Origin: Amoebidium appalachense
Taxonomy: Eukaryota > Protista > Ichthyosporea
NCBI GenBank assembly: GCA_963693365.1
Contig: CAVNZM010000017.1
Location: forward strand, 4,445,375 to 4,509,374
DNA length: 64,000 bases
Direction: 5' to 3'
Program-made: the position numbers and the translations under genes
Shown: positions 27,101-30,100 of the stretch, piece by piece
Layout: each line of letters opens with the position of its first letter
How positions within the stretch are numbered: position 1 is the first letter of the stretch
The notes under the pieces: generated by a model
What the model was told of the DNA's origin: nothing
The model's database searches: none
Seen by the model: only the letters and a program-made list of their open reading frames with translations

Positions 27101-30100
27101 GTGTGTGTGTGGGGGGGGGGGGGGGGGGGGGGGGGGGGGGGGGTGGATTATGTGTGTGTGTGTGTTTTTGGGGGGAGGGGGGGGCAGGGGCTGACGGGGG
27201 ATGTGTGGGGTGGGTGGGGAGATTCGTAGGTGGATGGGTGTGTTTGTAGGGGGAGCGGGTGGGGGGGGGGGGAGGGGGGGAGGATGAAGGTGAATGGGTT
27301 GGGGGGGGGGAGGATGAGTATGAGGGGAGAGTTTGTTTGTTGTGTGTGTGCGTGGGGTGGGGCGGACTAAATCAGGGGGGAATAGCTGTGTGTGCGTGTG
27401 TTGTCTGGAGGAGGGGGGAGGGGGGGTTTACAATCAGGTTTTTTGACGCGGCTAGTGAAATCGATAACTCTCTGTGTGTGGCCGTGAGGACAACACCCTC
27501 TATGCGGTAACTACGGTCATGGCCGCATAAAACGTCTAAGAAGTACCGAGCCAGCAGTGAGATAGCCCAAAGTATATCTCGGTGCCAGTATATCTCAACA
27601 ACCGTGACTGACCGATGCTTCGTTACACCTGTATGCCCTTGCATAACTTTTTATGCACGTGCACACACACACACACACACACACACACACACACACACAC
27701 ACACACACACTTGCCCCCTGCCCCCTGCCCCGCCTAAGCACACACACACACGTATTTTCAACAAGCAGAATCTTTGACACACACACACACAACACACACA
27801 CACACACACACACACACACACACAGGGGTTCGTGACTGGTGATCTTGAGAAGGATGCCGCAGCCGTGCGCATGTTCGAACGTAGGGGAATGGAGCTGCTC
27901 GTCTGCCAGTCCTGCTCCAAGAACTTCGGCCTTTACAGTTAGACCCCCCCCTCCCCCCCCCCCCCCCCCCCCCCCTTCTGCCCTCACGTATTGTGGCTTT
28001 GACAGTTAGAACCCCCCCCCCCCCCCCCCACACACACACACATACACACACACATAAATATCAGCCTTGACAGTTAGAACCCCCTTCCTCCCCCACCCCT
28101 TCCGGACTTTGCCCTTCACAGTTAGAGCCTTGCAGTTTGGATTCTCCATCCTCCCCCCTCCCCCCTCCCCCGCCCCCCTCCCCTCCCCCCGGCTCCCCCT
28201 CCACGTGCAAGTGTACAAGAGTACGAGTAAGAATTGTCCCATGTGGATTTATAATCAATATTTCACACTGCAGTCATCCAGCAGCGTGCTCTTGTTTAAC
28301 CTGTTCATACCGGCAATTTTTCCTAGATAGCCACTTCAGAAACACAGAGACAGATAAAAAGCATACGAAATAATTATATTTTCCCCAAACCAACTTAGTA
28401 CGGTTTGTAGGTAAGACATATACGGGTCGATGTTTACAATTTATTTGAGCTTTTTCTATCAATTTTGAGCCGCAATGGAGTTGTTTAGAGCTGTTTAGGG
28501 CTGGCCGGCTGCCGGCCAAATCAATTAGTGCTGGCCCGAAGAGGCTAACCCCCCCCCCAACAGTATCTGAGTTGGGTTTCGTTAACGAGGTGAATGGGTC
28601 GAAACTCGAGAACTGTGGATGACGTGGGCCCCCCTGAGGATGGGCTCTGCTTATTATGCATACTCTTTATGTATGGTTTGCATTCTGCATCGTGTTATCC
28701 GTTGTTCTTGTGCACTTCGTACTTTATGACGCATTCAACCCCCCCCCCCTCCCCTCTCCCCCCGGCATCCCCTTTGTTTTTAAAGACACGCACAGCAAGC
28801 ATGAGCTTAGAGGTTTGTATGTGCTGTGAGATAAACTCATCGTTTTTTTTGGATAAACGTTCGTGCACTAACTATCTCATCCCTAAGGGTGGGGTACCCC
28901 ACCCTTACCCACAAACACACAAATACCACCACCACCACCACCATTCCCAGGCGTATGCCCCACCTGCTTTTCATCTACACACACATATCACACCCACACA
29001 CACACGCACACATTCACATGTACACAAAAACACATGCGTACATATATGCCCACCCACACCCCCTCCCCCCTCCTCTCCCCCTAAACACACACACGTTCAC
29101 ACACGTACCCTTCAGCCCCCTCCCCCCAAACACACACCCCTACCCTTAAGCCCCCCTCTTCTCTCTCTCTCTCTCTCTCTCCCCCCCCCCCCCTCCCCCT
29201 CCCCCCCCCCCCAACCCACCACACAAACACACAAACACACACGTACACACGTTCACAGACGAGCGTTCCGGTTGCCTAACCATCGTCTGCAAGCGCAAGG
29301 AAGAAGTAGACATTGTTGTGTCTCAGCTCAAGGTGGTAGTGAGGCCCATGTACTCCAACCCCCCTGCACACGGTGCACTGGTGGTGGCCAAGATTCTCAA
29401 CGATGAAGGCCTCATGACTGAATGGTACTTCTTCCCCTCCCTCCCCTTCTCCTCCCCCCCAGCGACAAACGCGTGTGCTTACAGATGCACGACACAGAGC
29501 AACCGGGCATGGTTGCTCTGTGTCGTGCATCTGTAAGCACACGCGTTTGTCGCTGCACTGCATTAGTTTGCACACACATCTTCACCGTTTTGCTCACCTT
29601 GCTTGCATAAGCAACCCTGCTCGTCTTTGATCAAGACGGGTTGACCCACCCAAGTTCAGTTGATGCTGCTGTCTGAGTTGGAGCGTCGTATATACGCGGG
29701 CTAAGGGGTCGAAACTCAGACGCAATTGATGACTTGGGCCCTCCCTGAGGATGGGCTCTGCTTATGACGCATACTGTGCGCATGGCTGATGCTGCATAGT
29801 TGAATGTTTGCCTTTGCATGTGTCCTGCACCATGCTTCTCATCGTGTATGCGTACTTCGTACTGTGTTCCGCATTCAAACCCCCCCCCCCCCCTCCGCCT
29901 CTCTCTCTCTCCTTTCCCTTCGTGCCCACCTTTTTTCTCTTTCTGTAACGGATTTCCTCCCCTCGCCCGCACCCTCTCTCCATCTCTCCATCTCTCCCTA
30001 TCCCCCGTTGACCCTCCCAAGTTCAGTTGATGCCTCTGTCTGAGTTGCAGAGTCGTATATACGCGGGCTAAAGGGTCGAAACTCAGACGCAATTGATGAC

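Follow-up and report, generated by a model that had tools for sequence, protein, structure and literature searches.

A predicted hammerhead core, opened after A9, at the common 3' end of a probable Penelope-like repeat family in a likely protist

As judged by sequence, the unpaired parts of a structured repeat dispersed through 64 kb of the genome of a likely protist are those of a hammerhead core in the rearranged order S-G-C, and we are highly confident that the fold is hammerhead-derived. That the repeats represent the 3' end of a retroelement is held with the same high confidence. The element is likely a non-autonomous Penelope-like element (PLE) of the Naiad/Chlamys type that comprises at least two subfamilies, would insert into poly-C, and carries a predicted core-opened S-G-C hammerhead. 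The DNA analyzed, hereafter the window, is 64 kb in length. A sequence-only reading of it had described the fold but recognized no known ribozyme, a judgment overturned by the finding that the single-stranded parts spell out a hammerhead core in rearranged order. Both the second pseudoknot (stem I) and the core words were absent from that reading.

Fourteen pieces of the family are distributed across the window. Thirteen were retrieved by BLAST and an iterated profile, and the 14th, a 32-nt tip at 14891, was located by direct inspection. They are listed below, together with the fold-back and the poly-C that adjoin the subfamily B element.

307..505, + strand: diverged copy; stem I and CUGAnGA retained (third pair U-A, N7 = A), GAAA block deleted
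14891..14922, + strand: 3' tip only
17900..18037, + strand: decayed 3' copy
20155..20222, + strand: 3' fragment
28559..28738, + strand: 5'-truncated A copy; S, G, and C blocks kept, upstream strand gone
29461..29554, strand not applicable: fold-back palindrome in which the insertion's 5' part is repeated in inverted orientation, with arms of ~44 bp
29499..29879, + strand: subfamily B element body, within an intron of the aspartate aminotransferase gene
29880..29893, + strand: poly-C beyond the fixed 3' end, likely target or duplication
30008-30231, + strand: partial tandem copy with core; C-C mismatch in stem I
30239-30281, + strand: 3' tip in the partial tandem
39035..39147, - strand: 3' fragment with C block, the sole minus-strand piece
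39266..39354, + strand: 3' fragment
42594..43234, + strand: subfamily A element, 5'-truncated, core intact, no coding frame recognized
~44098/44101..44251, + strand: decayed B-like copy, 5' edge about at the predicted cleavage site
44965..45066, + strand: 3' fragment
62209..62287, + strand: 3' fragment

All 11 places named in the sequence-only reading hold family sequence, that at 14891 amounting to the last ~32 nt only, and the pieces at 30239, 44098, and 62209 are additions to that list. In total the family accounts for ~2.5 kb of the 64 kb. The 3' end is common to all 14 pieces, and the 5' ends vary. The + strand, which carries 13 of the 14, is also the sense strand of five of the six host genes detected. 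An element of ~250-285 nt had been proposed. That length is present whole in only two pieces (29597 and 42985), the remainder being 5'-truncated, and both long copies continue upstream into mutually different sequence, one to ~29499 and the other to 42594 plus ~190 nt known from contigs only. The 250-285 nt thus constitute a shared 3' domain rather than the whole element.

The extent of the element was followed in public contigs from five of the 24 listed runs. Subfamily B reaches upstream to ~29499, with high contig cover from ~29494. The upstream limit of subfamily A within the window is 42594. A 776-nt contig covers positions 42594-43241, and single contigs of three runs add 112, 189, and 191 nt; the subfamily A element is at least ~830 nt long. 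Its upstream part has stops in all three forward frames and no Pfam match. Summed contig depth in one DNA run climbs ~55-fold, from 1.9 x 10^4 at 42600 to 1.06 x 10^6 at 43150, and the contigs hold many truncated copies in which poly-C is joined to internal element positions. The climb and the joints represent a 5'-truncation gradient.

C-rich DNA lies 3' of 13 of the 14 pieces (at least seven C in the next 12 nt, a condition satisfied at 9.7% of random places) and 5' of nine of them (at least 12 C in the preceding 20 nt; random places, 8.0%). An insertion bias toward this microsatellite is seen in the poly-C flanks, in a window where C-runs are common and the random rates are 8-10%. Indeed, there are 283 runs of at least seven C on its two strands, and the introns are dense in poly-C and (CA)n, the two Chlamys-type targets. 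A short motif followed by poly-C, perhaps the 3' terminus of another family that finishes in poly-C, is positioned just 5' of two truncated copies (28543-28558 and 39247-39265). At 29461-30281 a partial tandem is combined with a fold-back inversion on its 5' side, and tandem and inversion are each represented by a single locus. Head-to-tail joints are present in both DNA and RNA contigs. Two of the runs are spliced RNA, in which the exon ending at 29426 joins an exon at 30743. Contigs from the RNA runs cover both subfamilies and carry no end, strand, or level information; intronic copies may explain this cover.

The architecture of the fold is given below, in the numbering of the subfamily B copy unless otherwise indicated. 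All of the features lie on the + strand.

29606-29613 with 29759-29766, +: closing helix P1
29615-29617 with 29753-29755, +: inner helix P1b, which begins one nucleotide past A9
29620..29640, +: hairpin P2, between P1b and the stem II strand
29643-29647 with 29706-29710, +: hammerhead stem II, the pseudoknot of the sequence-only reading (G10.1 = 29643, C11.1 = 29710)
29649-29655 with 29732-29738, +: base of the long stem, linking the stem II and stem I strands
29671-29678 with 29714-29721, +: hammerhead stem III
29679..29680, +: predicted cleavage site, after H17 = U29679
29680-29683 with 29741-29744, +: hammerhead stem I, the second pseudoknot
29711-29714, +: GAAA core
29745-29751, +: CUGAnGA core (extra U = 29752)
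29768..29780, +: 3' hairpin, whose sequence varies widely among copies with pairing kept
Subfamily A core, +: stem II strand at 43030, predicted cleavage after 43065, G12 at 43093, C3 at 43127

The helices that had been named are all present where they had been placed. NUH, GAAA, and CUGAnGA are in register with stems I and III, which directly flank the core and which measure 3-4 bp (stem I) and 9 and 13 bp (stem III) in the long copies. These core nucleotides are kept in all four copies that span the core, the sole change, at N7, occurring in the partly deleted copy at 307. One copy (30008) has a mismatch in stem I, the third pair of which is A-U, G-C, or U-A across three subfamilies. The GAAA lies 34 nt upstream of CUGAnGA. 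Between A9 and G10.1 the chain is opened by the extra helix P1b and hairpin P2: A9 is followed by the extra U and then by P1b, and G10.1 is supplied from upstream. An unpaired nucleotide at the A9 step is known in PLE hammerheads (PMC4209133; File S2), and the step after A9 is thus a tolerant site. Both the extra U and the stem III words match those of the published PLE hammerheads (PMC4209133; File S2).

The better stem II strand is located upstream of block S. A canonical stem II contiguous with A9 is weak, with two base pairs and then a mismatch, and the stronger stem II employs the upstream strand (-8.5 versus -5.4 and -7.3 versus -2.2 kcal/mol). It is very unlikely that the active form is instead an ordinary type-SGC hammerhead that takes stem II from the strand after CUGAnGA, with the upstream strand and P1b serving as an off-switch to protect the 3' copy. 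The sequence past the extra U does allow such a stem (G-C, G.U, a G-G mismatch, C-G, and U.G or U-A), a similarly weak one is found in the units of a metagenome contig, L102, and in the B copies the upstream strand can extend into G12/A13. The canonical stem II is, however, 3-5 kcal/mol weaker, and among the Naiad ends compared the three that bear the layout lack, by eye, any canonical partner.

A scan for the core in any order of its blocks gave seven matches on both strands of the window, of which three fall in family copies, all in the order S-G-C; the scan found no type I order in the element. When the two long copies were shuffled with dinucleotide content preserved, 32 and 37 of 20,000 sequences passed a loose test, and none of 20,000 for either copy passed a strict one (stem III at least 7, stem II at least 5). 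When only the sequence outside the two core words was shuffled, 0 of 5,000 and 1 of 5,000 passed. These counts are optimistic since the descriptor was drawn once the motif had been seen. The full descriptor matches only the two long copies and none of the 121 loci retrieved by pattern.

In a MAFFT alignment of eight copies, 86.7% of the cells pair, as compared to 21-48% when the alignment is slid. The 3' hairpin is out of register in this alignment, as is the third pair of stem I. Two-sided changes occur in three of 45 pairs, and 61 of 500 shuffles gave at least as many. The covariation seen in the window is therefore suggestive and not significant; the independent subfamilies are too few for it to be provable from the window. 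The compensatory change earlier ascribed to the pseudoknot amounts to one clean two-sided substitution (C-G to U-A, among three copies of two subfamilies). The 3' hairpin varies widely with pairing kept. The folding energy is ordinary (z = -1.45 and -0.30). The G.U pairs favor the + strand as the one that folds, and the proposal that the structure was under selection as RNA is upheld for that strand.

The window gave no Rfam match at the gathering threshold, and at E values up to 10, over 29450-30320, only hairpin- and miRNA-type models appeared, on the fold-back. This silence is uninformative, since Rfam, given four loci, also misses a canonical hammerhead array in L100/L102, two metagenome contigs of apparently one sequence. 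The array, which was retrieved with a pattern built from the two core words, consists of ~63-nt minimal type I hammerheads in tandem, with alternating unit types. Read over three units, complementary stem III halves in its neighboring units yield the order S-G-C, and the permutation may have arisen in this way. Relatives of the family were sought in viral and metagenome contigs: a 22-letter pattern found none, and a looser two-word pattern found 120 + 1 loci, none of them homologous (best profile E value, 0.11).

In cleavage tests, Eckert 2023 (PMC10085705) validated S-G-C, a non-circular permutation. The present fold shares with the type-SGC hammerheads of that report the order, the presence of an "I" helix, two core pseudoknots, a link between the strands of stems I and II, and a helix joining the other strands. 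The blocks are there assumed to be uninterruptible. In the present fold, by contrast, block C is broken open past A9, the stem II strand precedes the blocks and is clamped by P1b, P2, and P1, and both strands of the joining helix continue into stem III. The type-SGC examples were cleavage-tested, whereas the hammerhead described here is predicted and resides in a genomic retroelement. An uninterrupted block C supplying stem II was not found in the element; the best stem II strand is upstream of block S, and the fold is accordingly filed as a variant of type SGC rather than a member. No paper describing it was found in the open-licence literature; the supplements of Eckert 2023 could hold related variants.

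A comparison was made by eye, unscripted and with no statistic, with 11 Naiad 3' ends from the supplement of Craig 2021 (PMC8557442), four of the names being assigned from list order. That paper reports no canonical hammerhead in Naiads, which did not fit the hammerhead descriptors, but in eight of them it noted the other core half at a distance of 35-50 nt to one side or the other; in the present element GAAA and CUGAnGA are 34 nt apart. The whole layout, namely P1, P1b right after A9, P2, an upstream stem II strand, the joining helix, stem III, S, G, and C, can be traced in unrelated sequence in three of the 11: Naiad_Amil, Naiad_Plae, and the element before Plae (Naiad-2_Movir by list order). 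A canonical stem II strand after A9 is absent, by eye, from all three. Another three of the 11, from the nematode Nippostrongylus (File S5), read by eye as hammerheads of type C-S-G that include a joining helix; Eckert 2023 (PMC10085705) had two sequences of this permutation. No such fold was seen by eye in the remaining five (three bivalve ends, Naiad-4_Chem, and Naiad_Dcar) or in either of the two Chlamys ends compared.

The anatomy of the family also resembles that of these elements. According to PMC8557442, Naiad/Chlamys elements show 5' truncation, partial tandems, an inverted 5' copy, and non-autonomous forms with common 3' ends, and the targets of Chlamys are (C)n or (CA)n. Truncation, partial tandem, and inverted 5' copy are all seen here, and both Chlamys consensus 3' ends compared terminate in AA followed by poly-C, as do the copies in the window. 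The likeness thus extends to microsatellite target, truncation, tandem, inversion, and common 3' ends. Relative to the published elements, the present one combines a Naiad-type fold with a Chlamys-type (C)n target. Naiad/Chlamys elements encode an N-terminal GIY-YIG and a PLE reverse transcriptase with CxC and IFD, but no ORF was found in this element. Its host branches outside the animals and fungi of a one-gene tree, in contrast to the Naiads, which are described from animals. The clade assignment rests on anatomy and ribozyme layout, given that no partner reverse transcriptase or endonuclease was found; a search of all six frames of the 64-kb window for the PLE reverse transcriptase motif was negative.

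It is extremely improbable that the repeats are the structured 3' UTR of a LINE, or a LINE-tailed SINE, and that the hammerhead words arose by coincidence. A 5' truncation with a fixed 3' end is general among target-primed retroelements, and a LINE-type reverse transcriptase fragment does lie in the window, but that fragment has a (CA)n terminus and no sequence in common with the family. Neither a tRNA nor an Rfam head is present, the shuffle counts oppose coincidence, and the same layout recurs, by eye, in three of the Naiad 3' ends compared. Rfam and a tRNA scan revealed no tRNA, 7SL, or 5S SINE head, the scan having covered the element as it lies in the window, short of the last ~190 nt of the A 5' end and ~20-60 nt of the B 5' end; the earlier statement that the repeat is not a SINE of those three origins is borne out. 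A clear match to a known SINE, LINE 3' UTR, or Rfam family had been named as an outcome that would contradict the earlier reading. In part this came about, the 3' end being likely that of a PLE rather than a LINE, and the structure stands.

The other candidates rejected were as follows. The reverse transcriptase at 5800-7923 was dismissed as a partner on the basis of its LINE-type homologues and different 3' end. It belongs to a 707-aa frame (5800-7931, + strand) with a Pfam RVT_1 domain, the best full-length relatives of which are 27-29% identical; the sequence ends in (CA)n and then poly-A, and its 5' part is missing or not recognized. The segment from ~5690 to 5930 may be enclosed by an imperfect inverted repeat. 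Telomerase RNA gave no Rfam match and no 1.5-repeat template, and RNase P/MRP gave no Rfam match. An HDV-like fold was also considered, the strand 5' of the 3' arm of the pseudoknot bearing what we take to be a resemblance to the HDV J4/2 joiner; however, subfamily A has G or T in place of the would-be catalytic C, and the helix order does not match. A mollusc SINE was set aside since the host gene is not placed with animals in the one-gene tree.

The host is an intron-rich eukaryote, likely a protist. Its aspartate aminotransferase is 46-58% identical to 25 relatives, with a lower value for one plant row. In the tree (27 rows, one gene) it falls outside the supported clade of named animals and fungi, a position that a paralogue or a long branch could make misleading. 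A search with single-exon ORFs yielded nothing that bears on the host. Elsewhere in the window, a single-exon frame of 663 aa at 34709-36697 (- strand) has a rhamnosyl-transferase-like domain (PF11316), no word-index homologue, and atlas neighbors in eukaryotic clusters. Two-copy dispersed repeats are located at 2758-2853/8304-8406, 27477-27612/31347-31473, and 25698-25834/60135-60271, minisatellites near 20673, 22037, 33539, 40069, and 51154, and a short imperfect palindrome at 32940-32994.

With respect to mechanism, a reverse transcriptase-endonuclease encoded elsewhere would nick the G-run and prime on the nick, copying the RNA from its 3' end and usually stopping early. Such target-primed reverse transcription on a nicked G-run would give the fixed 3' end, the poly-C flanks, and the truncation. 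The two halves of the core are found at opposite ends of a ~25-28 bp hairpin to which they are tied by 1-2 nt; the tip bears the cleavage site and GAAA, whereas CUGAnGA and the stem II strand are situated at the base. A tip must thus dock on a base through two short pseudoknot helices. The slack in the spacers is small in subfamily A and in the three Naiads. With a spacer this long and stiff, docking between units of a tandem transcript is likelier, and the tip of one unit would dock on the base of another. A dimer model has been proposed for PLE hammerheads (PMC4209133). In published dimerizing hammerheads, which are circular permutations without pseudoknots, the units dimerize via stem III, whereas here stem III is long and stable and the docking helices would be stems I and II. 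Cutting after U29679 or U43065 would release unit-length RNA from tandem precursors, and lone intronic copies would cut slowly. On this model the ribozyme is, on balance, probably active in some context; whether its activity would depend on a dimer we consider evenly balanced.

The alternative that this is a hammerhead descendant that no longer cuts, its fold being retained as an RNA handle by which a partner reverse transcriptase starts at the fixed 3' end, is quite unlikely. It would accommodate the geometry of the monomer, which appears strained, as well as the tolerance of host introns for intact cores in the sense direction. The predicted cleavage site is marked neither by a step in DNA contig depth nor by a pile of contig ends, and only one of the 14 pieces starts there, about the chance level and no excess of 5' ends; moreover, metazoan PLE hammerheads cut poorly in vitro (PMC4209133). 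Set against this are the catalytic positions, every one of which is kept in all four core-spanning copies, the only change being that at N7 in the partly deleted fifth. They are likewise kept, by eye, in three animal lineages among the Naiad ends compared.

A somewhat better, but still unlikely, alternative is a special case of the preferred reading: a retrozyme-like circular RNA that is cut by the hammerhead, circularized, and reverse-transcribed around the circle. In one RNA contig (depth 60) the 3' end is connected to position 29499, and retrozymes have been proposed to be non-autonomous PLE derivatives (10.64898/2026.07.22.740005). A similar joint is, however, present in a DNA run, and tandem DNA thus explains it; furthermore, contigs do not reveal circles, and most copies are dispersed truncated monomers rather than arrays. 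With the non-LTR retrozymes, as described in the same source, the family has in common that the repeats are non-coding, hammerhead-bearing, and PLE-related. Those retrozymes form tandem type I arrays and are depleted in introns, whereas the copies in the window are mostly dispersed and truncated, and many are intronic; tandem units each with a type I hammerhead were not found in the family.

For the preferred reading of a poly-C-targeting PLE with a core-opened hammerhead, we tentatively go one step further, in a proposal whose chances fall a little short of even. A seventh hammerhead wiring, whose chain crosses the catalytic core from A9 to G10.1 and which works only if one unit's tip docks on a second unit's base, would already have been the ribozyme of the ancestor of the Naiad/Chlamys clade. 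It would have been retained in hosts as far apart as corals, jellyfish, acanthocephalans, and the likely protist studied here, where its carrier would target poly-C and multiply it genome-wide. An exact predicted cut site and mutants are offered. The window adds an apparently non-animal host, and poly-C as a target, to the range of the layout. If the reading is correct, the assumption in print that the CUGAnGA block is uninterruptible would be broken. The ribozyme of Naiad/Chlamys elements may then be present in wirings that descriptors and Rfam have missed, which would explain the apparent absence of a hammerhead from this clade as compared to other Penelope-like elements.
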